From Mobula hypostoma (Eukaryota), in contig NC_086107.1 of the NCBI RefSeq assembly GCF_963921235.1, forward strand, positions 106,270,001-106,334,000: DNA of 64,000 nt, given 5' to 3'. The notes under the pieces were generated by a model that saw only the letters and a list, made by a program, of their open reading frames with translations, was not told the DNA's origin and did no database searches. This document shows, piece after piece, positions 9,847 to 39,612 of the stretch (position 1 is its first letter; the number at the start of each line of letters is the position of its first letter). The position numbers were made by a program, and so were the translations under genes.

Positions 9847-10744
9847 TACTGGTCAACAACTTTTTTCAAAAGAGTTTTTTTTGTTTATGATAGACTTCTT
9901 GAAGCTGAACACAAATATAATTTCAGACTCACAAAACAGAGGAACTCAGCAGGCCAGGCAGCATCCATGGAAAAGAGCACAGTTGACATTTCAGGCCAAA
10001 ACGTCGACTGTACTCTCTTTCATAGATGCTGTCCGACCTGCTGATCTCCTCCAGCATTCTGAGTGTGTGTGTTGCTCAGGTTTCCAGCATCTGCAGATTT
10101 TCTCTTGTTTATAACTTCAGACTACTTGTATCACGTAAGAATTTGGAGAAGCATGAAATTAACTTCTATTGAATATAATGTGTTTAATTGCATTACAGTG
10201 CTGACGCTTTGCAATAGTTCAACTAAGCCAAAAATGTTTTGTTGATGATTTTCATTTGTACTCGATATCTGAGGCTTTGTGCTTAAGTGTCCAACAATAA
10301 TCGGCCAGCGTTGACGGATTCCAGTTGCCCTGATACCGTTTCTCCATGACCGCAATGTCCTGGTGAAACCTTTCACCATGCTCGTCACTGACAGCACCAA
10401 GATTTGTAGGGGACGAAGTCCAAATGGGAGGCAGAAAATTAATCTTTAGCGACATGGTTTTGTGTGCTTGGAGCATGTTGTCAACCAGCTGCACGTAGTT
10501 TGGTGCTCTGTAGTTGGCAAGAAAAATTTCAACAACATCCTTAAGTGCCTTCCATGCAATTTTCTCCGGTCCCACTAGAAGTTCTTTGCATTTTCTGTCA
10601 TTGATGATTGAAATAACAAATATAGGCAATTTTTTAAACTGGTAAGTGATAGGGAAATTTCATGGTAGTTTTCATGATCGGCAGCCCAAAATCCATAATA
10701 TATACCCAAAAGTATTCAGGAAGCAAAATCTTTGTTGTCCAGTG
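9847..10744 (-). mobile_element. Chapaev3-like (CMC) DNA transposon deletion derivative
   Basis: Transposase C-terminus (AWKA.KDVV..FL.NY...NLGAVSDEHGERFHQDI..MEKRYQG.WN...LADYCW); imperfect TIRs CACTGGACAACAA / TACTGGTCAACAA; interrupted by a hairpin element at 9930-10109. Confidence 0.7.
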
Positions 10745-12314
10745 CTATTTTAGTTGAGCATTTAATTACTAGTGTAATTAGATTATGAAGACACATAGTC
10801 CCCTTTTATTGTCATTTAGTAATGCATGTATTCAGAAATGATACATTATTTCCTCCGGTGTGATATCACAAAAAACACAGGACAGACCAAGACTGAAAAA
10901 ACTGACAAAACCACATAATTATAACATATAGTTACAACAGTGCAACAATACCATAACTTGATGAAGAAGTCCGTGAGCACAGTAAAGTTCAAAGTTTCTC
11001 AGATGTCCCACATCTCACGCAGACGGGAGAGGGAAGAAAAACTCTCCCTGCCATGCCGACCACAATCCGATTCTGAGTCACCCAAAAACTTCGAGCTCTG
11101 ATCAGCTCTCCGACACCGAGTACTGAGCGCCATCTCTGTCCGAACGATTTGACCTCCTTCTCTGTCGCCAAAAGCAGGCAAGGCTGGGGATTTTGAGGCC
11201 TACCCTCCGAAAGATTCCCGACCACACAGTAACGACAGCAGCGGATGGGCGTTTCAGAAATTTCTCCAGATGTTCCTCTGTGCTTTCACCACTATCTCAA
11301 TAAAATATTGTGGGTCGAAGAGCCTGGTCCTCTTTGTACTATTGAGTCCTAAGCGTGGAAACAGTCCATCCAGCCTACACTGGCCATTAAACACCCATTT
11401 ACACAAACCCTCCAGCAGCCTAGGAAGGGTGTGTGTTGATGCAAGTCCTTCCATATGACCGGAACATGGGTGTTCAGTTCAAAGTTCAAAGTGCAAAGTG
11501 TGTATACTACATACAAATATGAGACTCATCTCCTTGCAGGCAGCCACAAAGCAAAGAAACACAATAGTATTGACTAAAAAATAACACCACACCACGGACA
11601 AACATCCAATGTGCGAGAAAGAAAGAACAGGTCGTTCAAACAATTTACAGAGCATGAACCGCGGGGTCCCAGGAAGTCCACAGCCACATCACCAGTTCAG
11701 TGCCGCAGCCGGTCCAGGAGCCCAATGGCTACAGGCCTTCGGCCGCCGGCCCAGGTTCGGTGCTGAGCCGAGAGCCGGTGGCTGCAGAGTCAGTTCGATG
11801 CTGAGTAAAGTCTCACGGAGCAGTGAGCTGACCATCGGCTCGTCCATCGTCCTCAGCCTCAACACCACAGCACTGCTGATCTTCTGGACAGTCGATCCCT
11901 CGGGCTTCATCCTGGGTTTTCTTGGGGATTGGCGTGAGTGTTAGCTACTTTGCTGTATACAGTTATGTCAGCTCTTCACATCAAAGTCAAAACCGATTGT
12001 GACTAGTGGAGTCCTGCAGGGACCACGCTGCGACCTCTGCTCTTTGGGATATATAAGACCTGGATGAAAACGTGGATGGGTGGGTTGGTAAGTTTGCAAA
12101 CGATACAGAGATTGATGGTGTTGTGGACAACACAGCCGGACATAGATCCGTTGCAAACGTGGGCAAAGAAATGGCAAACGGAGTTTAACCTACCCAAATC
12201 AAAGACAAATGCACAAGTGCATGTGTGCACAGGTGAACTTCTGAACAAGTGCAAAGAAAAACTGACTTGCAGCAGCATTCATAAATATAAATTACCCGTA
12301 AATTGTGCAAATTT

Positions 12315-12670
12315 CGAGAAGATCGCAAGTGGTGACACTATTGGTTTTATCTGAGGTATCGTAATAGCCCTTTCTTTTCCTTTTCCTTTTCCTCTTCCTT
12401 AGTTTTCTTTTAGTTTAGGTAGATTAGTTTTTTTTCTAATGGGATTTTTTTTCTTTTTCTGTTTTTAATGATATTTTTGTATTTTATGTATATTTTCTAC
12501 ATATTCTATTGCTAATTTGTGAGATTTTGGGAGGTTTACCAACTATGTGTTACTTGACTATATACTTGTATAAAATAATTATCAATTAATACAACCCCAA
12601 TCGCTCTGCACTTATTTTTTGTAATGTGTATGATGTTGAAATTAACAAAAAGATTGAAAAAGAAAGAAAG
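12315..12670 (+). mobile_element. 5'-truncated L1/Tx1-like 3' end with 15-bp TSD
   Basis: T-rich body with A-rich tail, flanked by AAATTGTGCAAATTT at 12300-12314 and 12671-12685. Confidence 0.7.
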
Positions 12671-12987
12671 AAATTGTGCAAATTTTTACAAGAATGAACA
12701 CAATTCAAACAGAAAAACTCCCCCGGTTAATCTACAACCCAAAGGCATGAACAATGAATTTCTCAATTTCAGATAACGCTCCCCCTCTGTCCCTTCTCTT
12801 CCTCCTCCTGATATGCCCAGTTCCTCCTACAGCCACCCCACCCCATCACCTGCTTCCTTCACCCACACCATCTGCCCATCACACACATACACTCCTCCCT
12901 CTGGAACTCCCCACCCATCTGCTCGCCCCACCTCCCTCATTTGGTTCCATGGCCCACCTTCTTTCCCTGTCAGATTCCACCATCTGT

Positions 12988-14076
12988 CACTCTGAAGCTG
13001 ACAGCGATGCAGGTGGATGCTTTCCTGGTGTCATGGATTCTTGATTACCTGACTGGCAGACCACAGTACGTGTGCTTGCAACACTGTGTGTCCGACAGAG
13101 TGATCAGCAGCACTGGGGCTCCACAGGGGACTGTCTTGTCTCCCTTCCTCTTCACCATTTACACCTCGGACTTCAACTACTGCACAGAGTCTTGTCATCT
13201 TCAGAAGTTTTCTGATGGCTCTGCCATAGTTGGATGCATCAGCAAGGGAGATGAGGCTGAGTACAGGGCTATGGTAGGAAACTTTGTCACATGGTGTGAG
13301 CAGAATTATCTGCAGCTTGATGTGAAAAAGACTAAGGAGCTGATGGTAGACCTGAGGAGAGCTAAGGTACCAGTGACCCCTGTTTCCATCCAGGGTATCA
13401 GTGTGGACATGGTGGAGGATTACAAATACCCGGGGATACAAATTGATAATAAACTGGACTAGTCAAAGAACACTGAGGCTGTCTACAAGAAGGGTCAGAG
13501 CCATCTCTATTTCACGAGGAGACTGAGGTTCTTTAACATCTGCCGGACGATGCTGAGGAGGTTCTACGAGTCTGCGGTGGCCAGTGCTATCATGTTTGCT
13601 GTTGTGTGCTGGGGCAGCAGGCTGAGGGTAGCAGACACCAACAGAATCAACAAACTCATTCGTAAGGCCAGTGATGTTGTGGGGATGGAACTGGACTCTC
13701 TCACGGTGGTGTCTGAAAAGAGGATGCTGTCCAAGTTGCATGCTATCTTGGGCAATGTCTCCCATCCACTACATAATGTACTGGTTGGGCACAGGAGTAC
13801 ATTCAGCCAGAGACTCATTCCACCGAGATGCAGCACAGAGCGTCATAGGAAGTCATTCCTGCCTGTGGCCATCAAACTTTACAACTCCTCCCTTGGAGGG
13901 TCAGACATCCTGAGCCAATAGGCTGGTCCTGGACTTATTTCCTGGCATAATTTACATATTACTATTTAACTATTTATGGTTTTATTACTACTTAATTATT
14001 TATGGTGCAACTGTAACAAAAACCAATTTCCCCCAGGATCAATAAAGTATGACTATGACTATGACTATGACTACTA
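12988..14076 (+). mobile_element. Rex1-type LINE, RT C-terminal half plus 3' UTR, well preserved
   Basis: GAPQGTVLSPFLFTIYTSD, QKFSDG(D)SAIVG, SFLPVAIKLYN; (TATGAC)n tail. Confidence 0.88.
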
Positions 14077-14714
14077 TGTCTTCCCTCCTCACCTGGATCC
14101 AACTATCACATGTCAGCTCCAACTTCATCCCTTCCACTCACCTTTTTTATCCTGGCTATCTCTGCTTTAGCTTCCAGTCCAGATATAGGGTCCCAGGCTG
14201 AAATGTCAGCTGCCCTTTCCCCCTCTACCGATACCACCTGACCTGCTGAATTCAACCAGCTACTTAAGGCACACAAAATTCCGGAGAAACTCAGCAGGTC
14301 AAGTAGCATCTATAAAGATTTTGGACTGAGAACCTTCATCAATCTTCCTCTCCTAACAGATTTCAACCTCTGCTGCCCTTGGTTGACTCCACCCATCACC
14401 TCCCAACCTCTGAGCTCTTCCCGCCTCCACTTGGATCCAACTAAAACATTCCAGCTCTAATTCCATTCCTTCCTCTCACCTCTTCCTCCTGGATACCTCC
14501 CCTCAAGCTTCCAGTCCTGATGAAGGGTCTTGGCCTGAAACATCAACCCTTTACTCCTCTCAATAGACGCTGCCCGACCTGCTGAGTTCTTCCAGCATTT
14601 TGTGTGTGTGTGTTACTCTGGATTTCCAGCATCTGCAGAATTGTGTGTGTTTATCATCCAGCTGTTTGCTTGGATCTTTTTTTGCTCCAGTGTCCAGCAT
14701 TAGCAGCCTCTTGT

Positions 14715-15552
14715 GGGGTCTACAATTACATCCAATCTATGCAATAACAACCTCTTAATCAATATCAGCCAGACCAAGGAGCCAAGTATTGACTTCAGGA
14801 GGAAAGCGGAGGTCTATGAGCCAGTCCTCCTCAGAGTATCAGAGGTGGAGAGGATCAGTTCTATTTCAGAGGACCTGATCTGGGCCCAGCATATAAGACC
14901 ATTTACAAAGAAAGCACACCAGTATCTCTACCTCCTTAGAAGATTGCGAAGATTTGGCATGATATCTAAAACTTCGACAAACCTCTATAGATGCGTAGTG
15001 GAGAGTATATTGACTGGCTGCATCACAGCCTGGAATGGAAACACCAATGCCCTTGGTCTGACAAAAGGTAGTGGATATGGCCCAATCCATCACGGGTAAA
15101 GCCCTCTCCACCGTTGAGTACATCAACACAAAGCAGTATTGCAGGAAAGCAACATCCATCAGCGGGGACCCCCACCACCCCCAGGTCATGCTCTCTTCTC
15201 ACTGCTGCCATCAGGAAGAAGGTACAAGAGCTTCAGGACTCACAGTACCAGGTTCAGGAACAGTTATTTCCCCTCAACCAACAAACTCTTGAACCAAAGG
15301 TGCTAACTTCACTCACCTGGCTCATTGAAATGTTCCCACAAACTATGGACTCGTTTTCAAGGACTCTTCATCTCATGTTCTCGCTATTTATTGCTTATTT
15401 ATTTGCCCAGTTTGTTGCCTTTTGCACACTGGTGGAATGCCCAGGTTGGTAGGTCTTCCATTGATTCTATTATGTTTATTAATCTATTATGGGTTTACTG
15501 GGTATGCCCGCAAGAAAATGAATCTCAGGGTTATTTATGGTGAACTTTGAAA
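14715..15552 (+). mobile_element. Older Rex/Babar-type LINE fragment (related piece at about 16470-16915)
   Basis: KKAHQYLYLLRRLRRFGM...YRCVVESILTGCITAW motif; TGAACTTTGAA tail. Confidence 0.75.
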
Positions 15553-18500
15553 AGCACAGGTTATTCCATCCAACTAATCCCAGGCTGCTCTCCCCCCACT
15601 CCACCACTCGTTCATATTTTTATTGTGTACTTGTGGAGAATGAGGTTTAGAGAGGAAAACAGATGACCAGCCATGGAGCTGATTGAGGGCTGGTCCCACC
15701 TAGCTCCCATGAGAACAATTCCTACTTCCACGGTGCCACAGCAGTGTAGGGGTTAGCGTAACGTGATTATAGCGCCAGAGAGCCCAGCTCAGTTCCACTG
15801 CCTAAGGAGTTTGTATGTTCTCCCCGTACCGGCGTGGGTCCCCCTCACATCCCAAAGACCTGCTGTCTAGGGTTAGGGAGTTGGTGCTAGGAGCGTGGCG
15901 ACACTTGCGGGCTGCCCCCATCCTCGGTCAGTGGCGCTTGTCGATGCAAACGACGCATTTCGTTATGTTTCCACGTACATGTGAAAAATACTGTTTAAAT
16001 CTTTAACCTTTCCTCCAAACCCTGTGTGACACTCATCAAAGTTGCTGGTGAACGCAGCAGGCTAGGCAGCATCTCTAGGAAGAGGTACAGTTGACATTTC
16101 TTCGTCTGACGAAGGGTCTTGACCTGAAATGTCGACTGTATCTCTTCCCAGAGATGCTGCCTGGCCTGCTGTGTTCACCAGCAACTTTGATGTGTGTTGC
16201 TTGAGTTTCCAGCATCTGCAGAATTCCTGTTGTCCTGTGTGACACTGCCACCTCCTGGACGCCGGAGTCAGTGCAACCTTACCGCTTCGAAATCAACCGG
16301 GTGCCCTAATTGACTAACGCCGGTTTGGATTGACCCGTTCCATTTTATTCCAGATTTTATTCGTGTGTAACATCAGAAATCTCTGCTTAACCCATGGCCT
16401 TTTGCGGAGAGGGCTTGCAGATTACCACCACAGCATTAGAGTTCAACTGGAGCTATACAGGTGTCAGAAAAGGGAACACACCCCGGTCATCATAGAGGGA
16501 TCAGAAGTGAAGAGAGTGAGCATTTTCACGTTCTTGGGTGTCAATATGGCCAATGATCTGAGGATCTCTGAGTGATCCAACCTATCGATGCAGAGTTAAA
16601 GAAGGCAAGACAACGACTATATTTCATTAGGCGTTTGAGGAGATTTGGTTTGTCAGCAGAAACATTCGCAAACTTCTGCAGATGTACCGTGGAGAGCATT
16701 CTGACTGACCGCTAATGGGGAGAGGGGAGAGCTACTGCACAGGATCAAAATAAACTGCAGAGAGTTATAAAATTAGTCAGCTCCATCCTGGGCACGCGGT
16801 ACCCAGGCCATCTTCAAGGAGCGATGCCTCAAAAAGGCGTCATTCATCCTTAAGGACCCCCATCACCCAGGACGCGCCCTGTTCTCATTGCTACCATCGG
16901 GAAGGAGGCACAGTCCTGATTTGTGGGCTGTTTTTTTTAGCTGTAGGCGCCTGAAATGCACTGCAGGGGACGCTGTGGAAGTAGATCCAATAGACACATT
17001 GAGAGGCTTTTAGACAGACACGTGAACGAGCGGAGAATGGAGAACTGTAGTCCCTGTGCGTGTAGTTAGGAATAGTTTAGATTGGCATGGAGGTTGGCAC
17101 ATGGGGCGACTGCTTGCATTTTTGTCTGCCACGGCGATTCAAACGCATAAGACAACGCAGTGTTGCAGACTCGGCCCAATACATCGCGGGCACATCCCTC
17201 CCCACCATCGAGGCCCTACTTCACAGCGGGTGACACCAATTCCCAAAGATTGCCACCATCCCGGCCAGGCCATCTTCCCGCAGCTACCATCGGGCAGGAG
17301 GTGAGGTGGAGGAGGCTAAGGTGCAGATGAACCACAGCGGATAGCGCAGTACTGGTCAGGGTTTGTCGAATCCTGCTGGCCAATGCATTGCACATTTCTC
17401 CCTGTAATTGTTCTCCTAAGATCAACAATTTATACAGATGTCTTACACGCTAATCATGAGAGATCCTGAAGATTGGTCTGTTATAGTACTGTCATGACGT
17501 GTTACAGTACAGTACCGTGCCGTGACGTGTTGAGTTAGAAAATAAAATGTAAATTTGTAATTGTATCTTGCTTTATTGCTCTCCAAGGAAATGTGCTATT
17601 TAATATGTAGCCATGTTATTTTTAGGGTGTTTTCTGGAACTAGGGCATAGAGCAAATATTAATCTCAACTGCAACCAGTCTTCAGATCTGAACGTGGGTT
17701 TGTATATTAAATTTTAAATGCAGCTCGGAACAGGAAACATCCAGTTGATTTGAGATGTCCGCATTTGTATGAATGCAATCAACACCCCATCGCGTGTACG
17801 CAGAGACCACAGTAATTAACACTCGTTTTAGGTGCGTTGGTAGGAAGGTAACAAACACTTTATTGATCCCAAGGGGGAAATTCTTTCATTCCTGATCCAG
17901 GCATTCAAAAAAAATTACACGCAACTCAGAAAGAAGCATTATGAGGGCATTGTAACTATAGAAATTGTCCTGTTACCATTGTTCTTTAAAATATAAAAAT
18001 GTGTTGTAATGTTGGGTCGGGGAGTCTCTCTCATGCCTCCAAAAGTTACCAGCATGTGGGTGCCCCAAATAAAGACTTTTATAGTTACCAGCTGCATCTC
18101 TCCAGTGATTTTGTTCAGCATTACAACCCTATGTTGGCACTGGAATGTGGGGCGATGGTCGCAGGCTGCCTCCAGCACATCATTAGGTTGTGTAAGCTGT
18201 TATCGCAAATGGCACATTTCACGAACTGTTTCAATGTACTTGCTAAATAAAGGAATCTAAAGAGTTAATTGCTTTCAACCATTCAGTTCTGGAACCAAAC
18301 GGGAAACAACCCCCAGCACTACCGGAGTAGTGCTGTAGTGTATAACACTGGTGTACAGTGAGCAGTGTACAGTGTGGTTTGCTCCTCTGGCGTTCTTTCT
18401 TGTAATTAATTATGTGTAACTTACGGGTTGGGCCTCTGATGCTGCTGGCTGCTGCAAGTTTTTCATTGCACCTGCAGATAACAATAAACTCCACTGCCCC

Positions 18501-18775
18501 TGCGCTGTCCTATTCGAGAGAGTCTAATTATAAACCAGAAAAAAATCTGCAGATGCTGGAAATCCAAGCAACACACAGACAAAAAGCTGGAGGAACTCAG
18601 CAGGCCAGGAAAAGAGTACAGTCAACGTTTCGGGTCCTGCTGAAGGGTCTCGGCGCAAAACGTCGACTGGTTACTTTTCCATAGATGCAGCCTGGCCTGC
18701 TGAGTTCCTCCAGCATGTTGTGCGTGTTGCTAAGAGTCTCCACTCTTCGTACCCTGACTTACAATCTCAAACGTA

Positions 18776-19323
18776 CACTCAGCGCCCACTTTGCGGGGTG
18801 GAGACGTGGAAACCAGTGTGTGGTCTGCTGCAGTAGCCCGTCCACATCAAAGTTCGATGTGTGGTCAGAGATGTTCGGCTGCACGCCACTGTCGTAATGC
18901 ACGGTTGAGTTACTGTTGCCCTCCCGTCAGCTTGAAGCAGTCTGGCCGTTCTCCTCTGACCCCTCTCATTACAAGGTGTTTTCACTCACAGGAACTTTTC
19001 CCCCCACTATTCTCTGTAAATTCTAATGCAGGGGTTCCCAACCTTTTTTATGCCATGGGCCAATCCCATCAAGCAAGAGGTCCAGGACCCCAAGATGGGA
19101 ACCCCTGATGTGCCCGAAAATCCCAGGAGACCAGTGGTTTCTCACTCAAACCACCCTGTCTGGCGCCAACAAGAGTTCCGCAAAGTCACTGATCACGTTT
19201 CTTTCCCATTCTGAAACTCTTGACCATGCCCACGTGCTTTTATATATTGAGGTGATTGGTTGATTACATACTCGCATTAATGAGCAGCTGTAGATGTCTA
19301 CCTAACAAAGTGGCCACTGAGTA
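18776..19323 (-). mobile_element. Tc1/mariner non-autonomous element with nested CAGGGGTTCCCA-TIR hAT MITE (19029-19107)
   Basis: TA-flanked degenerate TIRs of type CACTCAGTGGCCACTTT; inverted homologue of 30251-30752. Confidence 0.7.
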
Positions 19324-19613
19324 TTTAGTTTGCTGGTTAATGAACTCACCGACTCCTCTACCCCTCTCCTCTCCCACCGCTTGCTCATGAAATTTCTTTG
19401 CTCCAGAATTAAACGTGGAACATGGAGGCCGCAGTGAAATCTCAGTCAACCCCTACACTGGGCCCCAAAAGTCGAGAACTGTGTCGGCTGCTTCTGGCAT
19501 CTAAAGTTTCTCCAGGTAACCGTGGTGTCGTTTCCCACACTTCCAGTTTCAACTGCAAACCTTCGTGCCTTTACAGACAAGAACCTCTCACACCTTTCTT
19601 TAGGAATGTGACA

Positions 19614-19623
19614 TTTATTTATT
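19614..19623 (-). terminator. Candidate distal poly(A) signal (overlapping AATAAATAAA)
   Basis: Ends a U-rich, 3'UTR-like minus-strand block; GU-rich sequence follows downstream. Confidence 0.45.
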
Positions 19624-25600: not shown

Positions 25601-27814
25601 TCAGAATTCACCATCACGACGTTCCAAGAGTGTTACGGCCACAGAAGTACTATGAAGGACACTTAAATGATGCTTAGATAGGAAAAATGGAGGGCTATGC
25701 GAGAGGGAAGGGTTAGATTGATTTTGGAGTGTAGGTCAAAGGGCTAGCACAACATTGCGGGCCGAAGGTTCTGACCTGGAGAGGCGTGAGATCTTGGGAG
25801 TGATGCCATCTCGAGTTTGGCTCCTTGTAGGGTCACTGATGGTACAGTCAAGGGAAGAAGCTCCAGATGTAGAATGATCCAACGGTAGAGCTGGTGGAAG
25901 AAGATGTCCCACGGCAATGGCAATGAAGGTGGGGGAAGGCTGCCGCAGTGAAGGGAGATCAGTCGTCTTCTACTCTGTGCCAGTGGACCCCGACCCGTCA
26001 CAGACTACCTCTGCATGGCCTCCCCACGTTAAACAACGCCCTGCACAGGCGTGCTCCACAAAGGGAATCCCAGTTCGGCCGCTACGGCCACTAGACGACA
26101 ACCCCTTAGGAGGACATCACACTGGAGTGACCGCACTATGACTAGTGCAACGTACTTTTCTCAGTTCTACATTCTAACTGTGGGCAATACGGCAGCCCGT
26201 TTGCACCCAGCAAGCTCCAACAGACCGGAAAGTGATAATGACAATTTTTTAAAAAACAGCACCTTCTTCAAAATAGTGCTGTGGGATGTTTTGTGGGAAG
26301 AGCCGCTTCAGAAAGAGGTCACCGTTAACTCTGTCAGTGCTGCCCACCGGACAGCCCCAGGGTAAGGTGAAGCCTTGGAGCACAATCTTCAGCTCAAGAT
26401 CGCCAGCGCTGGGGCGAGTCCAAGATCCGTGACAGCTCAAGTGCAGCTTACGCGAGGGGTCAGTGACGGAAGTTCACACAGAGGTTCCACCTTCCCAAAA
26501 AGTGGGAAGTGGAGAAGGGAGATGGGACAAGAGAGGCTTAGCTTCATTGATTCTTATTCACCAACCGCCTGCTTACTAACACCATCGCCTGAAAGCCTCG
26601 TCACGGTCTTGGTCCGAACACGGGGACACTGCAGAAACGCAGGTACGGCACCCTGAAGCGGGTGAAGTTCGGCCATCGCCGGAAAAGAGAACGCCGACTG
26701 ACGCAACGAGCCCGATTAAAGCGTCGAGGCCCGAGAGCAGGTAACAAACCGGTGTTCAGTCCCACTGTTCCAGGCCAGGCCAGGCCCGTCCCACCCCATC
26801 AGCACGCGCTTGATCCCCTTTCTCCTCATTACTCCATTGGGCGAGAGGTGCAGGAGTCTTGGTTCAGGACCAGTAGCTGCTCTATATCCACCGGGGCCCT
26901 GGACCAGCGTGGACAGCTTCACTCGCCTCAGCCATACCTGCATAATAAGCGTACTTCCAACGTTGAAATTCCAGAGAGAAATGACTGCCTTGACATCATA
27001 GGAGCACCTGACTGAATACTGCGTCTAAGGAAGGCAGGGAGGGTTGTAGGCAAGGGGCTCCGAGGGGGCAGGAGTCACAGAGGATATTAATTCACGAAGC
27101 TCCTCAAGGCAGGATCCATCCCACACCAAACTATCTCCAATCACTTCGCCAACGACCCTTCCACTGTAAGCAGGATGACCACCGGCGATCACACTGTGCT
27201 CAATTCCCTTCACAGACTCCTCAGCAAAAACGAAGCAGACCACGCCCGCACGCGGCGAGGCCAGGACGTCGCGCAGGGGTAGAGTCGGTGAGCCGCGAGC
27301 GCTAACATTCACACTCTGAATGCGCCAAGCCAAGGACCGTCGCCGAACAAGTGAGTCTGCCTTCCGATGCCATTGCCGTCACGGAGTTTACCCACCGCCG
27401 ATACTCCCGGGAGTTACCAGCGACCCAGAAACTCAACTCCACCAGCCACAAGTAGACCGCGGCGAAGAGAACCGGTTCGAAGCCAGCCGACCCACTTCCT
27501 GTCGATTCGAACCCCTCCGCCATCTGCAAATACACCGGAGCGAAGGAACGCTGCCCACTCGCCTGGACAAACACAGCTCCAAACGTCAAGGGAACCAACA
27601 CCACCCGGGACAAAGTAGCCTGCTTGACTGGGCCCCATGCACTCCGCCAAACACTCCCTCCATCCGCCACTCAACACACTATCTTTGACACTACCTCCTA
27701 CCACTGGGGACACTGAGAAGCTTGCCAAGGTGGACACCATCGCCCGCAGGCTTCCCGCCCAGTCATGCATCCCGCCCCCCCGATTTTGGAAATACATCAC
27801 TGTTCCTCCATCAC

Positions 27815-28298
27815 TTCTCCAAGGGGACCACAACCTTGTCATAGGGTTTGGAGGCTTGGTATGCCTCAAAGACCTGGAGAACTATGCCGGCTGGAGTCAG
27901 GGCCTCGTGGTTTGACTCTTGATAGGGTCAGCCATGCCAAACAGGTCAAACAGTAGAGGCCAGACTAAGAGTGGTCCGCCAGGTTTGGTGGTCCAGCACA
28001 GGACTAATAACCCTGACTGGTCAAAACGAAATGTTACGGACACGGCGATGGAAAATCCTGTATCTGCGTGCGATGGTATCCCTGAGGCTCTGCCCGGGAT
28101 TTGCACGGGCGACAGCAGTAAAACCCTTAAGAGGAAGTCACTGGCACGACGAAGGACCAAAGGCAACCTGATGCCGTACAGCAGAGGCAAAAACGAGGAC
28201 CCCGAACCGCACCTGGGGCACAGTAGAGAAGACAGCCAAAGACAGGCCAAGATGGAGGACGGACATTGCTGCCCTGAGCAGCAGCAGCGTACGAGGCA
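27815..28298 (+). mobile_element. Bipartite RTE-derived non-autonomous retroelement (relatives at 8545-8960 minus, 53417-53720, 58295-58620)
   Basis: RTE/BovB-like 5' UTR (GGACCACAACCTTGTC...TAGGGTCA.CCATG...CAGACTAAGAGTGGTCC) fused to an RTE ORF C-terminus (NRTWGTVEKTAKDRPRWRTDIAAL). Confidence 0.7.
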
Positions 28299-30250
28299 TG
28301 GGATGAACCCTCTGTCATTAACCCCTGCAGCTCTCCAATGACCGTCAGAGTACTGACCTGTACCGGATCAATTACAAGAAGGTAGCAAGTGCGCATTCAA
28401 CCGACTGATCAATCGACTGGGCCTCCTACGCACGGGAGATACTCTTTTCATCTGCACGGGCTTTCAAGGGCGCAAGTTTTTTTTTGGCCTCTGTGGGCTC
28501 TGAGGGTCCTCACATGAGTTACCCAGCATGCACCGCAGCTAATAGGACTCAGTAAAAAACAATTAAACCTACAACTCTGCTGTGGACCTTGCTCTGCGCA
28601 TAAATAACAAATACCTACACTAGGAAGACAGTAGCTCCCCTTGCTCTCTCAAAACCGAGCACCTCCCTTGATAGTTACAAGCTCAGCACCCTCCACCTCA
28701 CAGACAGGTTAGATATATACAGGCAGGAAGATAGCTCTGCTACATAATCACATCTTTGTAAAATGCAATTATTATAGACGAGGAACTGCCCAAATGGAAC
28801 ATTATTAGTCAAAGATAGAGTCAGATTGTTCTTTGAACAAATGATTATACATATAACTAGATAGTATTTACAACCAGCTATTTAGATAGACAGGAAATCT
28901 CTGCTGCTCTTTATAATAATTAATATTGCGGATTCTGCCCGACGGCATGTTTAATTAGTGTTTACATACGGAGTTTTGTTACATCCGGAATTCCCACTTT
29001 TCTGACAGCTCCCTGCTTCCAGTCGAATCCAGCCAGCGACACGCGCGGAGGCCGCCAGTCTTCCGATTCCGTTCCAACAGGCTGCGTCCAGCAGCGGTGT
29101 CGGGGCTCGCTCCAAACCCGACGACACCCCTGGAGACGGAGAACCGAAGCAACGCGCCACAGACAACACTCCGCCTTCCGAACTGCTCAACACAGAAAAA
29201 AAAAAGGTTCTCGGTGCTGAGAGTCGCCCTAGACACACACACACACGCAAACAGGAGCAGAAACAAAACTTAACTCTCTCTCACCAAACATGTCACGATA
29301 TATACATATATAATTATTTTAAAATCTGTTGCAAAAATTAACTATTCACACCAACAACTCACTAAAAAAAATGCTGTCGCATCCAACTGCATCTCTTCAA
29401 ATTTCAGACTGAAAAAACTTGATCTACCAGTCATATTTACCAATCTTACACCAATACACTTCCAGGGTAGGGAAAGGAGGGGAATGTCATGATTAGGAGT
29501 GGGTCCGACCCACTGGGAGGATTCCATTATCACAACAGCAGCAGCGTGATTGCTCCCGTACCTGAACTCGACCAGAAACTAGAGTCTTTGAACAGCAAGT
29601 GCGTTTCACCTCAAGGAGAAAGATGGGGCAAAAGTTAGACTCCACTGATCCATCCCTTGTATAACACTAATCCTCAAAGAAAAATTAATTATTTAATGCA
29701 GGAAATAGTGACGATACTCAGCAAGGCGGGCAGCATCCGTGCAGAGAGGACACAGGAACCAACACTGGGGTACGGATGAGAGGCCATCGCCCCGGAACGT
29801 TACCGCTTCCCAGCCTTGCCTGCTGAGTAGCGCCACCATTTGCGTTATCACAGCGTTGCATGTGCCCTATTTTCACACCCCCCGCCCCCAAACTCCGCTC
29901 CAATGCAGTGACAGTTTTTACGTCAATACTTCAGCATGGCAGGAAGCAGCAAGGGACCCAGTCACACGAACACGCACGTACACTCGCTCACACGGGGGAT
30001 GCTCGAGGACCGGGCGAGCCAAAACTATCTCAAGCGTCAGCAAACAACTGCCCTCCAATCGTCAAAGAGTATTATCACTTCTCTCACAGATCAACCAATC
30101 CAAAGAGACCTTAGAGAGAATCCAAAGCCCAATGCAGCACTCCAATCCCAGGTAAAGAGCACAATGAGTCCAATCAGGCACCCCGAGACATATTAATCCA
30201 GCAAGTCCCCTGCCCGCATTTAAAAATTTAATCTTCATCACAGAAAGCTA

Positions 30251-30752
30251 CACTCAGTGGCCATTTTATTAGGTACACCGGCTCGTTAATGCAAATATCT
30301 AATCAGCCAATCATGTGGCAGCAGCTCAATGCATAAAAGCATGCAGACACGGTCAACAGGTTCAGTTGTTATTCAGGTCAAACATCAGAATGGGGGAAGA
30401 AATGGGATCCAAGTGGCTTTGACCGTGGAATAGTTGCTGGCGCCAGACAGGGAGGTTTGAGGTGATCAGGAACTGCTGATCCCCTGGGGTTTTCATACAC
30501 ACAACAGTCTCTAGTTTATAGAGAATGGTGCGAAAAACAAAATTTAAAAATCCAGCCAGCGAAGACGTCTTGTTAACGAGAAAGGTCGGCAATCGCCCAG
30601 GCTGGTTCAAGCTGACAGGAGCTCAAATAACCACACATTACAACAGAAGAGCGTCCCTGAACGCATAATATGCCAGGCCTTGAAGGGGGTGGGCTACGGC
30701 AGCAGGTGTTTGCGTGCCTACTGGGTGTGCCTAGGAAAGTGGCCTCTAAGCG
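30251..30752 (+). mobile_element. Tc1/mariner non-autonomous element
   Basis: TA|CACTCAGTGGCCATTTTATTAGGTACAC ... GTGTGCCTAGGAAAGTGGCCTCTAAGCG|TA. Confidence 0.75.
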
Positions 30753-33399
30753 TAGGTTTTCCACTCACATCCCAAGCAATCAGACTCGGCACAGAACTGA
30801 GAGAATGGAGGAACGGACATCCTGATAATTCCTTCTCCAAGCTTCTCGTACACCGCCATCCGTAACATCCCAGGCCAACTTCTGAATCATACATCCACCA
30901 CCCCCTCCCCCACAGTACCTGCGCCAGCCAGTTAAACAGACCATCTAATACATCTCAAAATTTGTCACTGATCATAGTACCTTCCAAATTCAAAGGACCA
31001 ACAATTCCATACCACGACCAACAGCTCCCACTACCCTTAGTAGCCAGCCCCCCTCCGGGATATGAGATGGTTCCACTTGCAGACCATCCTCATGGTCTTG
31101 CAGGCAGGGACAGATGGGAAAATAAGCCAAATTCGTGGAGCAGACTTGATGGGACTGAATGGCCTCACTCTGCCCCTTTGTCTTCTGGTCTAAAATAAAC
31201 TGCTGGGGGAGCTCAGCAGGTCGAGCAGCATCCGGGGGTGGGGGTGGGGGGGGGAGGAATGAGTCTTGCCTCGGGTCGAGACACTCAATCTGAAACAGCG
31301 ACAATTCCACTCCCCTCTCCACGCCGGCTGCCTGGCCTGCTGAGATTCCCTTCCACGGTCTGTGCTCATCGCCCCAGAGTCCACCATCTGCAGCCCTTCG
31401 TCTCCCAGGAAGCTCCTCGGACTGTCCCCGGAGGCAGACTGCCTCACCTGCCCACCACACCTGGCCCAACGCAAACTTGCCGATAAAGCCCCACAAAATG
31501 GTGTCTCCCTTCTGTACTACAGTAACTGCCCCCCCCCCCCGAAGCATCTACAGGAGCCAGAAGCCACTGCTCCGCACTCCATCCATTCCACAAAGGGCCA
31601 TCACCTCACCCCCATCCTTCAGCCTCACTGACTGCTGGGCCAAATGGAGAAGGGAATACGCTTGCGGGCGTCAGAATTACTTCATTCGGTGTCTCCGGCC
31701 CAGGCTGGGCTTCAGACTGGCTGGGGCAGGAATTGATGTTCTTGGGTGGGAGATTGGATCAGAGTGCTCAAGACCTTTGGAGTAAATAGTGACAGAGTGC
31801 TCTTAATTAGCATCAGCATACGAGACTGAGGGGTACACAAATTTTGGACGCAAAAGTGAGGATTTTGTTTTTAATAGACAATAACGTCATTATGGTCTGG
31901 AATTCACCAAATTAAGAAGATCTGTGCCAAAAGGAGATTTGGAAATTCTGGGAAAAGTGGCAGGCGGTCCTAATGGGTTTGCTGGACTAGAACAGGCCCA
32001 ATGGGCCACAAGTACCTTTTACGACGTTATTTTGTAACATCAAACAGAATCCAAGAACCCCACCCCACCCCCATCACCACCACTTGAACCCCCACTGCCT
32101 ACCTCCCTTTTGCTTCTGCCTCTAACACGCATCCAGAAATTAAGCAGCAGCCGGCGGACAGCCTCGCGCCCTGTCAGAGTAGGCCCGACTCCTGCAACAC
32201 GAGCCCCAATCACCTGACCACAGTAACTAAAAGCAGTGGGTGCCCGGAGATCGTGCGAGCCGGTGATCGCAGCAGTCTTAAGACAACAGGGCCTACAGGA
32301 ACCTTGGGACAACTTCCTTCCTTCCCTCCCTCCCTCCCACACCACACCCACCCCCCACCCCCAAAAACACTTCAGAACGGGCAGAGGATCAAAATGCCTG
32401 AAGGTATTGCGCAGTTTCTCACCACCAGACTTTGGAATTCTAAGGACATTGCGGGAAGGCGGGAATGCTTAAAAGGCTCCCTCAGATATCCACGGCACAC
32501 AATCTCCCACAAAGAGGCTGCGGTGACAGCAGCTAACACACATCAGTCAAGGAGGCCGGGAGGGGACAGCGGACGATGATTCCGACCATCACCCTGCCAA
32601 CCCAGCCGCACCCTCTCCTTCTCTCCCTTGTCTCCCTCCCTCCCTTTTCTCACCAAAACCCCTTCCCAATCAACTCCACACCGATTGCTTTCCAAGCCCA
32701 TTACACCCTTCCCCGTGCTAACAGAGTTCTAACTAGTGCTTTTTGCTTTTCCTTATAATAAAATTATTTGCAAAGTTAAGAAAAAAAAAATTAAATGCCA
32801 TTTTTTTTTTAAAAAAGGGCTTTGGAAAGATTTTTAGCCAGCCTGAGGTGCTGGTGCTCAGAGATAAAAGGTAGATTCGTTCCATCTTTTAAAGTGGCTG
32901 TTGTACGCTTTATATTACTAATAAAAACGGTGGCAAAAATTAAAGAGGCCTCACAAAGTTGTCAAAACAGGCAGGGCTGAAATGGCAGCTCAGCATTCCC
33001 AGGAATTCCCATCACTGCTTCCCAGTTCCTGCAACGGCAGAGTCCAGAGCTCTAACACTACGAGGTGCGGAAAGAGAAGCCAGTACCTAGAATGCGGGTG
33101 AGAGCTCGGAGGGAACGTCAAGGGAGGGGAGAGGGTCCGGTTCCGGCACTGCCGCTGGCCAGCGAACCCAGAGACAGGGGCAGTGAAGGTGGACCAGAGA
33201 GAGACCAGGAGGGCAGGGAATGGGAGGTGGGGTAACTGGGGAGGTCACAAGACCCACAGAGAATGGGCCTCCAGCGTAGGGGGAGCGGTGAGGGAAGGAA
33301 AAAGCAGACGGGATGGAGTATGTGAAAGGCGGAGGGGTCCAAGGGGAATGGATGAGGTTGTGAGACAAATAGTGAGTGGGATGCGGGATAAAGTGGGAA

Positions 33400-34150
33400 A
33401 CATGGGAGGAGAGGGTAGAGACAGATGGAGAGGTAGAGAAAAGGGGTGAGAGAAAAATGCAGAGACAGGACAGAGAGAGGCAAAGGCAGAGAGAGATTAA
33501 CAAGACAGAAAGAGATGGGGGGAGAGAGATGGCTAGAGCAAAGGTGAATAAATAATGGGGGGGGAGGAGGGAGAGAGACAGACACAGGTAAAGAGAAAGA
33601 GAAGCACAAGGTTGTGACAGAGAAAGATAGGGAGTGGAATATCGGAAACATGGGGAGGAGGGAAGAGACTGGCAGAGGAGCAGAGAACAAGAGGGAGGGA
33701 CGGACGGACGGACGGGGGGAAGAGAGAGCGAGCGAGCGAGAGAGAGAGAGGGGGAGAGAGAGGGAGAGAGAGAGGGAGGGAGAGAGAGAGAGGGAGGGAG
33801 GAAGAGAGAGAGAGGGAGGAAGAGAGAGAGAGGGAGGAAGAGAGAGAGAGGGAGGAAGAGAGAGAGAGGGAGGATGAGAGAGAGAGGGAGGATGAGAGAG
33901 AGAGGGAGGATGAGAGAGAGAGGGAGGGAGGGAAGGAGGGAGGGGAGAGACACACACAAACACAAGGAGGAGGGAGAAAAATAGAGATAGACAGAAACAG
34001 GCAAGGAACCATGCCAACCAACAAACAGAAAATGGGAGGCAGAGGCAAGGAAAAAGAGAGAGGTTGTGAGGGAGAGAGGAAGTGGGATGGAATGAGGAGG
34101 GACAGAGAGAAACAGAGAGGCAGACGCAGAGAGAGGGAAGGGGAAAGAAA
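33400..34150 (+). repeat. Polypurine compound (GA) repeat with an 18-bp unit array (GGAGGA[A/T]GAGAGAGAGAG) at about 33795-33925
   Basis: Directly visible; lies just 3' of the CBX6 stop and is CU-rich in the mRNA sense. Confidence 0.9.
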
Positions 34151-34315
34151 ATGTCAAGGAATGATACTGGACAACATTTCAATGGGAAGCGACCTCTCGC
34201 CCAGATGCGGGGGAGGATTGTGTGAGACAGGAGTGCTGGGCCATTTGGGAGGACAGTGTGATGAGGATTCCTGGGAGGGGGAGTGACAGGGTGAGGACAG
34301 GGTCGGGGGGGGGGG

Positions 34316-35185
34316 TTACTTATTTACAGCAGGGGCCTTGACGAAGTTGTCAGCGCTGCAGAACTCTTTGATGGTGACGGTGAGCAGGTTGGTGGTGACA
34401 TCTGTCACCACCACGTTGGAGCAGGGCGACATCTGGGGCCTCCAGCCCGACACCTCGGGCTCAGCGGGGGGTGTTGGTGGCGGGGGTGGGGGCCGACGGG
34501 CAGCGGCGGCCGACTCTGGGGGCAGGGAGAGGTCCAGCGCCTCGGCCTCCCGCCAGTCGGGCACAGCTGGGCTGGGGGTCTCGGCGGGTGCCTTGGCCCC
34601 GCCGCCGCCCCTCTCCCCCCCAGGGCCCGGCCACTCCAAGCCCGGTCGGGGGCCGGGGTCGCCAGGGTAACGGGGGGCAGAGGCCGGGGGCGAGGGCGGC
34701 TCGGCGCGGGAGGTGCCGGGGTCCCCCTCAGCCACCCTGCCGCGGCCGGGGATGGGCGCGTGGAAGGACTTGTCGTAGACGGAGAAGCTGTTGAACTTGA
34801 GGTGGCGGATCTGCGTGCGGAGGACGCTCTCGCTGAACTTCTTGCTCTTGCCGATGACCCGATTGCGCGAGGGGACCTTGGCCTTGCCCAGGGCCTTGCT
34901 GCCTTTGTCAATGACCTTCAGGTTGAGGATGATGCGCCCCCGCTTTCGCCGACGAGGGTCCACCTTGCGGTTGACGATCCGCACACTCTCTGGCAGCGGC
35001 AGCGGGGGCCGCGTCTGCCCGCTCAGGCCCGCCGGCTGGGTCTCGGCCCGGCCCAGGCCTCGCTTGGACGGCGGCCGGTAGCAGCGGCGGATGTTCTTTT
35101 TCAGCTTGTAGGCTGCGCTGCCAGGGCCCGGCTTCACCGAGAAGTGCATCTCTCCGATCCTCAGAGCTTCAGCTTGTGCGCGGGC
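34316..35185 (-). CDS. CBX6: CBX6 terminal coding exon 5 with C-terminal Pc/CBX box
   Basis: CCAG acceptor, then [19 protein letters not shown]...[14 protein letters not shown]...[25 protein letters not shown]...[29 protein letters not shown]...TAA. Joined CDS is 1116 nt = 371 aa plus stop. Confidence 0.96.
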
Positions 35186-35756
35186 CTGGTAGGGAGACGA
35201 GGGACAGCGGTTACAGACGGACAGCCCCAGCCCATTTCCCAAATCCCTCCCCCACCAAATCTCCACCATTCACTTCCTCTCGGGCAGGGACGATTTCGTG
35301 GCAAACACGTGGCACATGTGGGCCAGAGGTCAGGGCCATCTGTGACAGGAAAGAGCTGGTAATGTGCCGAGCTCTAGGAGAATCTTTGGGTCGGGGGTGG
35401 CGAACCGATGGCACATGTGTCAAATAAAGGCAAACAGTAAAAATTTGTTGGCATGCCGCATGCAGTGCTGTCCCTCGATTCATTAAACACCACCCATGAA
35501 AAGAAAGATACATAATGATCATCTTTACTGCCAAATGAAGAACCAAATACACTCCATGAAAAGTTGATAAAACTAGAACTATGAACGATAAAATTAATGA
35601 TGTGTATCGCTCGCAAAACAACCTCATACAAGGCAGATATATTTGTCATTGATAGTGCAGCAGCAAAAACCTCAGAATAATGTGTTTTTTTTCTTTCCTT
35701 GATCTTTTATGAATATGCCTCACCATCATCATATTGTGCTGTGTCTTATGACACTG

Positions 35757-36065
35757 ACAATCACGGTCTTGACCACGACTGCACTTTACAAATTTTTCTA
35801 CAGAAGTGGTTTGCCATTGTCATCTTCTGGGCAGTGTCCTTACAAGACGGGTGACCCCAGCCATTATCAATACTCTACAGAGACTGTCTGCCTGGTGTCG
35901 GTGGTCGCATAACCAGGACTTGTGACACGCACCCGCTGCTTCATGTGACCCTGATCGGGGTGCTAAGCGGGTGCTACACCTTGCCCGAGGGTGACCTGCA
36001 GGCTGGCAGACAGAAGTACCTTACACCTCCTTTGGTAGAGACGTATCTCCACCCTGCCACCCCTA
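35757..36065 (-). mobile_element. Probable RTE-mobilised SINE
   Basis: Contains CAATGGCAAACCACTTCTGTAG, resembling the BovB-type UTR segment. Confidence 0.45.
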
Positions 36066-36827
36066 CGCACCAAATATGCACATGAATATGCACCTAAGTT
36101 TATAATTTGACATTCACATTTCTTATATAGTAACAATACTACTTAAATATCACAAATACTAAAGTATGCAGCTGGAAATTCAAAGCAACACACACAAAAT
36201 GCTAGAGGAACGTCTTTGGGAGCTGCTGAGTTGCTCTAGCATTTTGTGTGCAATACTTTATTTTTATTGACATACAGCATGAGGCAGGCCCTTGCAATCC
36301 CAGCCTAATCACAGAACAATTCACAATGACTAAAGTACCTACCAACCGGTACATCTTTGGACTGTGGGAGGAAACCGGAGCACCCGGAGGAAACCCATGC
36401 GGTCACGGGGAGAACTCACAAATTCCTTACAGAATCGAACCCAGGTCGCTGGTACCGTAAACCATTGTGCCAACCACTACACTACCCTGCTGCCCCATAG
36501 ATATGGCATTACTTTATCAACTGTCTTTTTAAAAGATTAATATTAATAATTTTTGAACAGATTTTCTAAAATGCCTCATTTATTCCAATTTGTCTTTGTA
36601 ATACTCTTATACTTTTCTGGGAATAATGAAGAGACTAAAATAAGCATCCTTTTTCCTTAAGAAAAGCCCGGAATCAGATTTGTTATCACTGGCATATGTT
36701 GTCGAGTGTGTTGTTTTGCAGCAGCTGTATTTTGCAATACATATTTTTATTACAGTAATAATATATAAAATTTCAATTAAATAAGTAGTGCAAAACAAGA
36801 GGGAAAAAAGGAAAACAGATCTTGAGG

Positions 36828-37032
36828 AATTGTTGCAACACACACAAAAAATGCTGGTGAACGCAGCAGGCCAGGCAGCATCTACAGGAAGAGGTACAGT
36901 CGACGTTTTGGGCCGAGACCCCGCGTCACGTCGACTGTACCTCTTCCTATAGATGGCCGCCTGGCCTGCTGCGTTCACCAGCATTTTTTGTGTGTGTTGC
37001 TTGAGTTTCCAGCATCTGCAGAATTCCTCGTG
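36828..37032 (+). mobile_element. Penelope-derived palindromic short element (family also at about 7780-7990, 9930-10109, 14080-14650, 16034-16233, 18530-18732, 38430-38650, 39535-39815, 47665-47790, 58975-59105, 59720-59847)
   Basis: About 72-bp inverted arms (36835-36906 / 36928-37000); CTTGAGG repeated on both sides; shared TTTCCAGCATCTGCAGA terminal motif. Confidence 0.75.
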
Positions 37033-37369
37033 CTTGAGGTAGTGTTCATGGGTTTACTGTCCATTCAGGAATCTGATGGCAGAGGGGAAGAAGCTGTTCC
37101 TGGAATCGTTGAGTGTGTGCCTTCAGGCTCCTGTAGCTCCTCCCTGATGAGAAGGGGACATGACCTGGGTGATGGGGGTCCTTAATGACAGATGCCTCCT
37201 CTTTTTTGAGGCATTGCCGTTTGAAGCATAATTATTACTACTAATTCACTAATCAATGACGATCACTGGTCAAAATTACCATGGCATGCTAGAGAATGTT
37301 TCGGAAGATTAGTATGGGTGGACGCTCTCAAAAAGGCTCACCCCTCCCAAGCTAGACTGTCACTTAAAG

Positions 37370-39575: not shown

Positions 39576-39612
39576 AGTCGACGTTTGGGGCCGAGACCCT
39601 TCATCAGGACTG
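39576..39612 (-). ncRNA. Minimal hammerhead motif with G12>C substitution, sense to CBX6 in intron 4
   Basis: CAGTC-CTGATGA-A-GGGTCTCGGCCC-CAAA-CG-TC-GACTG; perfect 5-bp stem I; probably inactive. Confidence 0.5.

Follow-up and report, generated by a model that had tools for sequence, protein, structure and literature searches.

Short fold-back PLE termini in a 64-kb window of Mobula hypostoma are probably by-products of PLE integration

Known PLE insertions and how the locus compares

The closest described counterparts of the repeats analysed here are insertions of EN+ PLEs, whose canonical form is an inverted 5'-truncated copy with a tail of 30-40 bp at one end (Craig et al. 2021, PMC8557442, Fig. 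2 legend). Rotifer Pen2a_Av and its relatives have an inverted pLTR, a 31-bp tail on one side and a TSD of 9-10 bp (Arkhipova et al. 2013, PMC3846280), and how the inverted pLTR and one-sided tail of PLEs form is still described as undefined (PMC8557442). In vitro, cleavage and extension of both strands of the target have been shown for the protein of PAc (Poseidon of Anolis carolinensis), RT starts at two sites within the RNA, one on either side of the tail, the enzyme is predicted to be a dimer and the ribozyme is dispensable for insertion (Frangieh et al. 2024, PMC11167929); the main text of that paper gives no explanation of inverted copies. Pairs of minimal hammerheads on opposite strands, 100-700 bp apart, have been ascribed to truncated PLEs, and the portions of Cervera and De la Pena (2014, PMC4209133) on which we draw describe these inverted pairs without TSDs, tails or junctions.

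The window, by which we mean the whole 64,000-nt stretch of DNA analysed, holds nine fold-backs of about 90-390 bp. They match the published PLE insertion because an inverted 5'-truncated copy adjoins a direct one (nine divergent arm pairs in the window), because the tail is one-sided and because the TSD is variable, as it is in canonical EN+ PLE insertions (8-10 bp there, 6-14 bp here); also alike is an empty site with a single TSD copy. Unlike in the canonical form, about 30-300 nt remains of each copy, so that no ORF is left and the product is a bare hairpin, and nine copies in 64 kb contrast with the very few copies of the rotifer families.

Other systems resemble the fold-backs in part. 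During L1 twin priming, cDNA synthesis starts from two 3' ends of the target, which leaves a 5' inversion within one TSD and microhomology at the junction, but each of the two cDNAs copies its own, adjacent part of a single RNA, whereas both arms here copy the same stretch and therefore two templates or strand displacement would be needed. Retrozymes, which are head-to-tail monomers bounded by the ribozyme cut site, are alike in small size and in having a hammerhead motif, but there are no head-to-tail monomers here. MITEs, in which terminal inverted repeats and TSD length are fixed, share the hairpin shape and the TSD, whereas here neither the ends nor the TSD length is fixed. A literature search, with Repbase, Dfam and most subscription papers outside its scope, returned no paper devoted to cartilaginous-fish PLE stubs of this ORF-less fold-back kind.

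Fold-backs and TSDs in the window

A sequence-only reading of this DNA had described four fold-backs with flanking repeats of 7-14 bp at 9916-37039, and all four were found as placed; these short hairpin repeats are real insertions. The fold-backs as wholes carry no strand, and the strands below are those of their arms. In E1 (9916..10123), a 14-nt TSD with one mismatch (9916-9929/10110-10123) encloses 180 bp, within which the short arm (9930-9997, minus strand) and the tailed arm (9994-10109, plus strand) have a palindromic GGCC in common; they meet about 12-13 nt before the predicted ribozyme cut, and both therefore lack the CUGAUGA core. E1 is an old copy, its arms differing at 17 of 65 columns. 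E2 (16021..16246; 200 bp inside) is bounded by an exact 13-nt TSD (16021-16033/16234-16246) that has only two occurrences in the 64,000-nt window; its short arm (16034-16106, minus) has a 12-nt gap over hammerhead helix II, its tailed arm spans 16106-16233 (plus), and it belongs to a young subfamily, with 5 of 73 columns differing between arms. E3 (18519..18739; 207 bp inside) has a 7-nt TSD (18519-18525/18733-18739), a tailed arm at 18526-18634 (minus) and a short arm at 18634-18732 (plus), with 1 nt common to both. E4 (36821..37039; 205 bp inside), also with a 7-nt TSD (36821-36827/37033-37039), has a tailed arm at 36928-37032 (plus) and a short arm at 36835-36928 (minus) that 7 extra nt separate from the left TSD; it is of the same subfamily as E2 (tree support 81/87), and only 2 of 66 columns differ between its arms. 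All four have a one-sided extension, on the right arm in E1, E2 and E4 and on the left arm in E3, and their hairpin z-scores against 100 dinucleotide shuffles are -5.4, -18.8, -10.1 and -17.2 for E1 to E4, respectively. E2 gave a sub-threshold miRNA match in Rfam.

The earlier count of four copies of about 200 bp nonetheless has to be widened, since the window total is nine and the size is not fixed near 200 bp: the inner lengths of the TSD-bounded copies are 91, 180, 200, 205, 207, 210, ~330 and 392 bp. The longest, U14 (14252..14663), has a 10-nt TSD with one mismatch, a short arm at 14262-14341 (minus) and a long tailed arm at 14342-14653 (plus); it sits within an older copy of the same terminus, and its junction is also spanned by a contig of organism E (record 18). 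U31 (31174..31403) is an old fold-back of 210 bp, with a 10-nt TSD (one mismatch) and a decayed tail on the right arm, and U36 (36155..36257) is a 91-bp fold-back with a 6-nt TSD and a 10-nt filler at its junction. U39 (39170..39824; ~330 bp) is bounded by an exact 12-nt TSD (39170-39181/39813-39824) that occurs just twice in the window, and its tailed left arm is interrupted by a piece of another repeat (~39230-39532). U29 (29695..29852) is a very decayed divergent arm pair (E 0.03-0.05), and a TSD looked for at its edges was not found. The previous account also needs correcting in that the same terminus occurs as non-inverted copies: S47 (47653..47799, minus strand) is 5'-truncated and tailed, has a 10-nt TSD with one mismatch and sits in the tail of an older copy, and 58975-59108 is a non-inverted copy without a tail. 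A profile of the terminus has 32 matches in the window, 27 of them at E<0.01, versus one endonuclease (EN) remnant as the only ORF piece.

TSDs of varying length, 6-14 bp, flank eight of the nine fold-backs. The sequence-only reading had itself raised the objection that such repeats might be no more frequent than chance. A score of at least 7 was reached by seven of the nine fold-backs but by none of 72 swapped flank pairs and by 3.3% of 1500 random pairs, in a test that reached 12 nt outward and 3 nt inward of edges set after the repeats had been seen. A single 7-mer TSD is weak taken alone, with a chance frequency of 1% at tight slack and 9% at loose slack (400 random pairs each). The same reading had asked whether empty orthologous sites hold a single copy of the TSD, and at E2 one does: in the related organism E, a contig (run X18, record 23) carries a single 13-bp copy, its letters 20-160 corresponding to 15880-16020 and its letters 161-300 to 16234-16364, so that it skips 213 bases, the 200-bp E2 plus one TSD copy. 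The E2 repeat is therefore a true TSD, as judged from this one contig of one run, which is ~88-90% identical to the flanks. Among the pieces listed for runs X16, X6 and X1, none crosses E2, which is uninformative about that site.

Hammerhead motif, junctions and origin of the fold-backs

The view that the arms derive from a PLE terminus with a hammerhead motif fits the consensus of the window's arms, which satisfies the full minimal-hammerhead descriptor and is thus a predicted ribozyme. The best-preserved minimal type-I motif in the window (39570..39612, minus strand) comprises a 5-bp helix I, CUGAUGA, a bulged A, helix II and CGUC, with one change in GAAA, and near-complete predicted copies lie at 39607, 59011 and 59843. 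As far as the consulted portions of PMC4209133 describe them, the metazoan PLE hammerheads of Cervera and De la Pena (2014) are alike in their CUGANGA core, in the unpaired base before helix II, in the G10.1-C11.1 pair and in a palindromic 15.2-16.2 without helix III, whereas helix II is 7-8 bp in the Schistosoma families and 4-5 bp in the window's motifs. Rfam gave no match at the gathering score in the whole window and four sub-threshold matches in 14300-19000, none of them a hammerhead, and isolated hammerhead segments fold no better than shuffles (z -0.5 to +0.3).

The 3' ends of the arms fall into two clusters, at about +58 to +70 and about +90 to +109, with one of each in all eight readable fold-backs, and an extension of 35-45 bp is accordingly carried by exactly one arm in the same eight (U29 is unreadable). 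We had considered that both RT starts keep a constant spacing from the repeated TCCAGCAT motif (+47, +76), and dropped the idea on finding distances of ~4-16 versus 17-26 nt. The 5' ends cluster within ~30 nt before the predicted cut. Relative to that cut, the junctions lie at ~-13/-12 in E1, ~-28/-28 in E2, -11/-31 in E3, -27/-5 in E4, -27/beyond -200 in U14, +41/+34 in U36, where both arms start 3' of the ribozyme, and ~-110/-41 to -56 in U39. All seven mapped in the window thus differ, even those of E2 and E4 within one young subfamily; 1-nt microhomologies at junctions are no better than chance. In an arm tree that omitted both U36 arms (<45 nt) and three fragments, and whose bootstrap had not settled, the arms of two young copies were mutual nearest neighbours, with 12 and 7 non-consensus positions in common. 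This was so in only two of the nine copies; in the remaining ones, decay obscures how the arms are related or the arms may have had separate templates. A two-base variant occurs in one arm of E1 and in one arm of U39 but in neither partner arm, which is weak evidence and may be homoplasy. We considered that the arms within E1 and within U39 come from different subfamilies, but the two E1 arms are about equally far (0.12, 0.14) from a near-consensus copy, a pattern that simple decay would explain.

On the strength of nine fold-backs from one 64-kb window, we think it probable that fold-backs are a by-product of PLE integration and not a self-copying unit. What they show is insertion with a TSD of 6-14 bp, a pair of 3' ends that face outward, exactly one tailed arm and a junction that differs in every copy mapped, and they look like the shortest form of the known PLE insertion pattern, made afresh at each jump. 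Each would then be one insertion by an autonomous PLE in which both cDNA copies stop after ~30-300 nt. A staggered double cut would provide two 3'-OH primers, one starting at an outer RNA site to give the tailed arm and the other at an inner site to give the short arm; both cDNAs would head for the structured hammerhead region and often halt there, would be joined head to head by a short filler or by microhomology of 1-4 nt, and gap repair would produce the TSD. The stub would be dead once inserted, and its arms would decay independently. On the two-primer, two-start-site course in particular our judgement is evenly balanced. The two RT start sites of PAc fit the two 3'-end clusters, but PAc belongs to the Penelope/Poseidon clade, whereas the EN remnant here has a Neptune/Nematis linker, and PAc is likened by description, not by sequence.

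One could instead suppose that a single cDNA folds near the hammerhead and extends on its own strand, or that the RT jumps from its RNA template to the cDNA, with the second arm stopping at the inner site before being joined to the other target strand. The near-symmetric turns of E1 (GGCC in both arms) and E2 (a short inverted repeat at its centre) and the near identity of arms in young copies speak for such a snap-back, but the arms of E3, E4, U14 and U39 reach very different points, U36 has filler at its turn, and folding alone leaves unexplained why the short arm ends at +58 to +70, as the tail-less non-inverted copy at 58975-59108 does; the one-arm variant of E1 and U39 counts weakly against it too. 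We regard this origin as possible but rather doubtful. Unlikely, in our judgement, is that RNA copies of some stubs serve the PLE enzyme in trans as complete templates for new insertions, giving subfamilies with shared junctions. Rotifer pLTRs suffice in cis to mobilise DNA between them (PMC3846280), putative non-autonomous PLEs are known in Chlamydomonas (PMC8557442), the terminus is far commoner in the window than ORF pieces, and five of the eight TSD-bounded copies measure 180-210 bp, a clustering also expected of a preferred unit. Yet the seven mapped junctions differ, the E2/E4 subfamily included; in run X1, the contigs sum to a depth of 112 at 14366, which lies 25 nt inward of the U14 junction, versus 1.5 million in the bin over the 3' arm, and the U14 junction is therefore not amplified; no dominant fold-back junction appears among the best 15 of 7741 joints, a result confounded by several arms in the stretch; and a long hairpin RNA would be difficult for an RT to copy.

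That a hammerhead cuts a precursor and a released or circular RNA defines the element is very improbable. Although the family consensus satisfies the hammerhead descriptor and 5' ends cluster shortly before the cut, none of the 14 measured fold-back arms starts at the cut, E1-E4 all fail both the strict and the relaxed descriptor, the copies are inverted rather than head-to-tail, and PAc ribozyme mutants leave in vitro insertion unaffected (PMC11167929); this retrozyme-like reading is largely refuted. The sequence-only proposal of ~200-bp hairpins mobilising alone as a ribozyme-associated non-autonomous element is not supported in this window, given lengths of 91-392 bp, differing junctions and arms that do not start at the cut; its second option, an inversion made at each PLE integration, is the one that the seven differing junctions support. 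Its preference for retrotransposition over MITE cut-and-paste also holds, on the variable TSDs and the one empty site. Long inverted arms are superficially like terminal inverted repeats, but TSDs range over 6-14 bp, the two ends are variable and, with a tail on one side, unlike each other, a single TSD encloses the arm pair and the empty site lacks both arms together. For E2, that empty site refutes both a MITE mobilised by a DNA transposase and a pair of unrelated insertions lying head to head, and for the fold-backs in general we give these readings almost no credence.

As an element, the fold-back is nothing unusual, being a described PLE insertion in its shortest form, and its value is as data: a stub packs the junction, the TSD and the two ends into ~200 bp, and nine lie in 64 kb. 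A stub census could test whether each insertion uses an outer and an inner RT start, whether the arms come from one RNA and how the cuts are staggered. The rule of exactly one tail per fold-back may, with about equal chances of being right or wrong, be a trace left in the genome by a dimeric PLE enzyme that primes on both strands of the target and uses its two RT starts; if so, it would explain the origin of inverted pLTRs. It is improbable, by comparison, that some stubs became masters, a 'retro-MITE' of two PLE ends whose junctions would be shared between loci elsewhere in the genome. Annotation could also mistake stubs for MITEs or microRNA hairpins.

A candidate relative of the autonomous partner

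Terminus motifs had no occurrence in public metagenome contigs or viral contigs. A 17-mer matched at least 117 metagenome loci and a 20-mer six prokaryote loci, none above 16.4 bits against the arm profile, and we set these aside as looking like chance.

The EN remnant (52200..52570, minus strand) is the broken C-terminal GIY-YIG endonuclease of a PLE with a CX3CxxC linker of Neptune/Nematis type, and is a candidate relative of the fold-backs' autonomous partner. Its 3' UTR overlaps the terminus at 18 of 19 nt, which is not significant against shuffles (P=0.70), nor are the overlaps with four long arms (P 0.12-0.91). By itself the remnant has no GIY-YIG Pfam match, and a word search among longer proteins gave none. 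Both the CX2-5CxxC linker before GIY-YIG and the CCHH motif are visible in it, across frameshifts, and phmmer recognises it with 798 matches at E<=0.001; in the atlas it falls with GIY-YIG clusters at 0.95, the family being assigned on 20-35% of members. Among ten homologues scanned, RVT_1 precedes GIY-YIG in three, the latter at 750-890 aa, and in a fourth, with GIY-YIG at 590 aa.

Insertions, flanking repeats and an empty site

Re-reading of the window bore out the four fold-back copies that the sequence-only reading had flagged: E1 (9916/10110) lies between 14-nt direct repeats with 1 mismatch, E2 (16021/16234) between exact 13-nt repeats, and E3 (18519/18733) and E4 (36821/37033) between 7-nt repeats. 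All four inserts have a long hairpin fold, with z from -5.4 to -18.8 relative to 100 shuffles. A search profile built from 14 arms of the window, an arm being one of the two inverted copies of a Penelope-like element (PLE) terminus in a fold-back, gave 32 matches there, 27 with E<0.01, and these include nine divergent arm pairs, E1-E4 among them. The others are U14 (392 bp, 10-nt target-site duplication, TSD), U31 (210 bp, 10-nt TSD), U36 (91 bp, 6-nt TSD), U39 (about 330 bp without an internal piece of another repeat, exact 12-nt TSD unique to this site) and the decayed U29, at which a TSD was looked for and not found. Copies of the terminus without inversion are also present, one with a 10-nt TSD (47653/47790), so E1-E4 represent the middle of a size range.

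The proposal that flanking repeats exceed chance held: when repeats were sought up to 12 nt outside and 3 nt inside the edges, 7/9 fold-backs scored at least 7, while of 72 pairs with swapped flanks none did and of 1500 random pairs 3.3% did. The test is slightly generous because edges were chosen once repeats had been seen. The 7-mers of E3 and E4 are weak, each by itself. The first 5 nt of the E1 right TSD (10110-10114) resemble the family tail end (compare E3), which suggests that priming microhomology may form part of this boundary.

Over positions 14050-19000, contigs from four public runs, of organisms A, B, C and E, were compared with the window. One 454-nt contig of organism E (run X18, depth 8.6) spans 15880-16020 and then directly 16234-16364, gapless; the 213 bases missing at the E2 site equal the 200-bp insert plus one 13-mer copy. 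By a test set beforehand, the E2 TSD is single at this empty site, as shown by one contig about 88-90% identical to the flanks. With a neighbouring LINE bin as reference, the depth of the E2 bin is 4.8 in A, 5.2 in B, 1.1 in C and 0.16 in E, and that of the U14 and E3 bins 1.4-2.1 in all four, ratios in which contig depth does not equal copy number; the contrast fits an expansion of the E2 subfamily after divergence from organism E. Another junction, the older one at U14, is spanned by an organism E contig (record 18).

Arms, tails and junctions

Every arm is the outward-pointing 3' end of one family, whose consensus carries a type-I minimal hammerhead (5-bp helix I, CUGAUGA, unpaired A, helix II, GAAA) that ends in palindromic ACGU without helix III, in agreement with the PLE motif traits listed in the available portion of PMC4209133. 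By descriptor, 0/4 of E1-E4 keep a complete ribozyme. Counted in nucleotides from the predicted cut, 3' ends group at about +58 to +70 and at about +90 to +109, and all eight readable fold-backs have one end in each group. Extension of one arm per copy, as first proposed, is thus general among these, with one arm tailed (by 35-45 bp) and one short in 8/8, odds of 1 in 256 if arms were tailed independently with even odds. Paralogous contigs run beyond the E3 short-arm end into tail sequence, and the short arm is therefore a tail-less form of this terminus. This one-tail rule is the testable point of interest.

The 5' ends mostly lie within 30 nt before the predicted cut, with 0/14 exactly at it, and they are distinct in 7/7 mapped copies, as expected from the suggestion of a different junction per copy: about -13/-12 in E1, about -28/-28 in E2, -11/-31 in E3, -27/-5 in E4, -27/beyond -200 in U14, +41/+34 in U36 and about -110/-41 to -56 in U39 (decay prevented mapping in U29 and U31). 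The E1 arms join via a 4-nt palindrome, those of E2, E3 and E4 overlap by 1 base each, and those of U36 meet through a 10-nt filler (36212-36221). This filler is similar to a word found in the D7 family of repeats, perhaps through a template switch to RNA of another retroelement. E2 and E4 form one subfamily, yet their junctions are unlike; the arms of E2 (5/73 differences) and of E4 (2/66) are mutual nearest neighbours, and in the other seven fold-backs arms are 9-45% apart and mutual nearest neighbours in none.

Relation to known elements and possible origin

The idea that these hairpins of about 200 bp mobilise alone found no support: we see no sign of self-propagation, and a master copy with a shared junction does not account for the window, where all seven mapped junctions differ. 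Nor do the stubs, as we call the fold-backs, class with MITEs, or with retrozymes, given that no arm begins at the cut and that E1-E4 lack a complete ribozyme. They are real insertions of an already known pattern. In PMC3846280, PLE inserts carry an inverted terminal repeat (pLTR) and a one-sided tail of 31 bp, their TSDs measure 8-10 bp, and an allelic empty site is described; PMC4209133 has truncated PLEs with minimal hammerheads on opposite strands 100-700 bp apart, and PMC8969392 names inverted pLTRs and short extensions among known PLE quirks. The stubs resemble these in how they work. They share 4/5 features of PLE insertions and perhaps the fifth, a terminus-ORF link. At 52200-52570 (-) lies a broken C-terminal GIY-YIG remnant, a candidate relative of the autonomous partner, with 798 homologues at E<=0.001, of which 4/10 scanned have RVT_1 then GIY-YIG; upstream of its GIY-YIG lies a CX3CxxC linker, a type given as a Neptune/Nematis trait in the available text of PMC8557442. 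Its 3' UTR is interrupted by another repeat and has no significant overlap with the longest arm, so the putative assignment of the terminus to a PLE rests on structure and ribozyme, not on an ORF join.

How might such structures arise? Their origin is still undefined according to the same text of PMC8557442. For a lizard PLE, the portion of PMC11167929 available to us reports that both strands are cut and extended, that reverse transcription begins at two internal sites, one either side of the tail, that the ribozyme is dispensable and that the protein is a predicted dimer; inverted copies are not treated in that portion of its main text. We infer that a staggered cut of 6-14 nt would yield two primers, of which one would serve the outer start site and the other the inner, that both cDNAs would end early, often close to the hammerhead, and that the truncated products would be joined head to head. 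Such a scheme would account for a single TSD enclosing two arms and a single tail, as well as for unique junctions with matching subfamily markers. Snap-back of a single cDNA is a fair rival for symmetric cases. E4 offers one case in which, within 36824-36834, the final 4 nt of the left TSD and the 4 nt after them together form an exact reverse complement of 8 nt of its own tail, from near the tail end. The sequence then jumps to the inner end, as though the second primer had paired with the tail before passing it over.

Neighbouring features

U14 (within 14103-14715) and the non-inverted copy at 47663-47789 (within 47640-47815) are each inserted into an older copy of the same terminus, one point adjoining a CCAGC motif and the other in the tail palindrome, which may reflect homing to the element's own end. 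A non-inverted copy without tail at 58951-59118 is bounded by 7-nt repeats; about 25 nt that look like a tail end come before it, and it may be a partial tandem. At 38430-38670 two arms lie tail to tail, the reverse of the fold-back layout; a TSD was looked for there and not found. Exons of CBX-family Polycomb genes occur at 34316-35269 (-), 42804-43241 (-) and 61997-62491 (-), including a CBX7_C motif (Pfam E 1e-15) and what we take to be a chromodomain-like start; E4, U36 and U39 sit between the first two pieces and are probably intronic. Another repeat has two inverted copies, about 81% alike, at 10167-10748 and 63323-63999, possibly relics of a DNA transposon; its 135-aa frame has no Pfam match. 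Judged by its repeat content, the host is probably a cartilaginous fish. Decayed LINE reverse transcriptase frames (RVT_1) lie at 3135-3752 and 12812-13921, and LINE fragments occupy much of the window.
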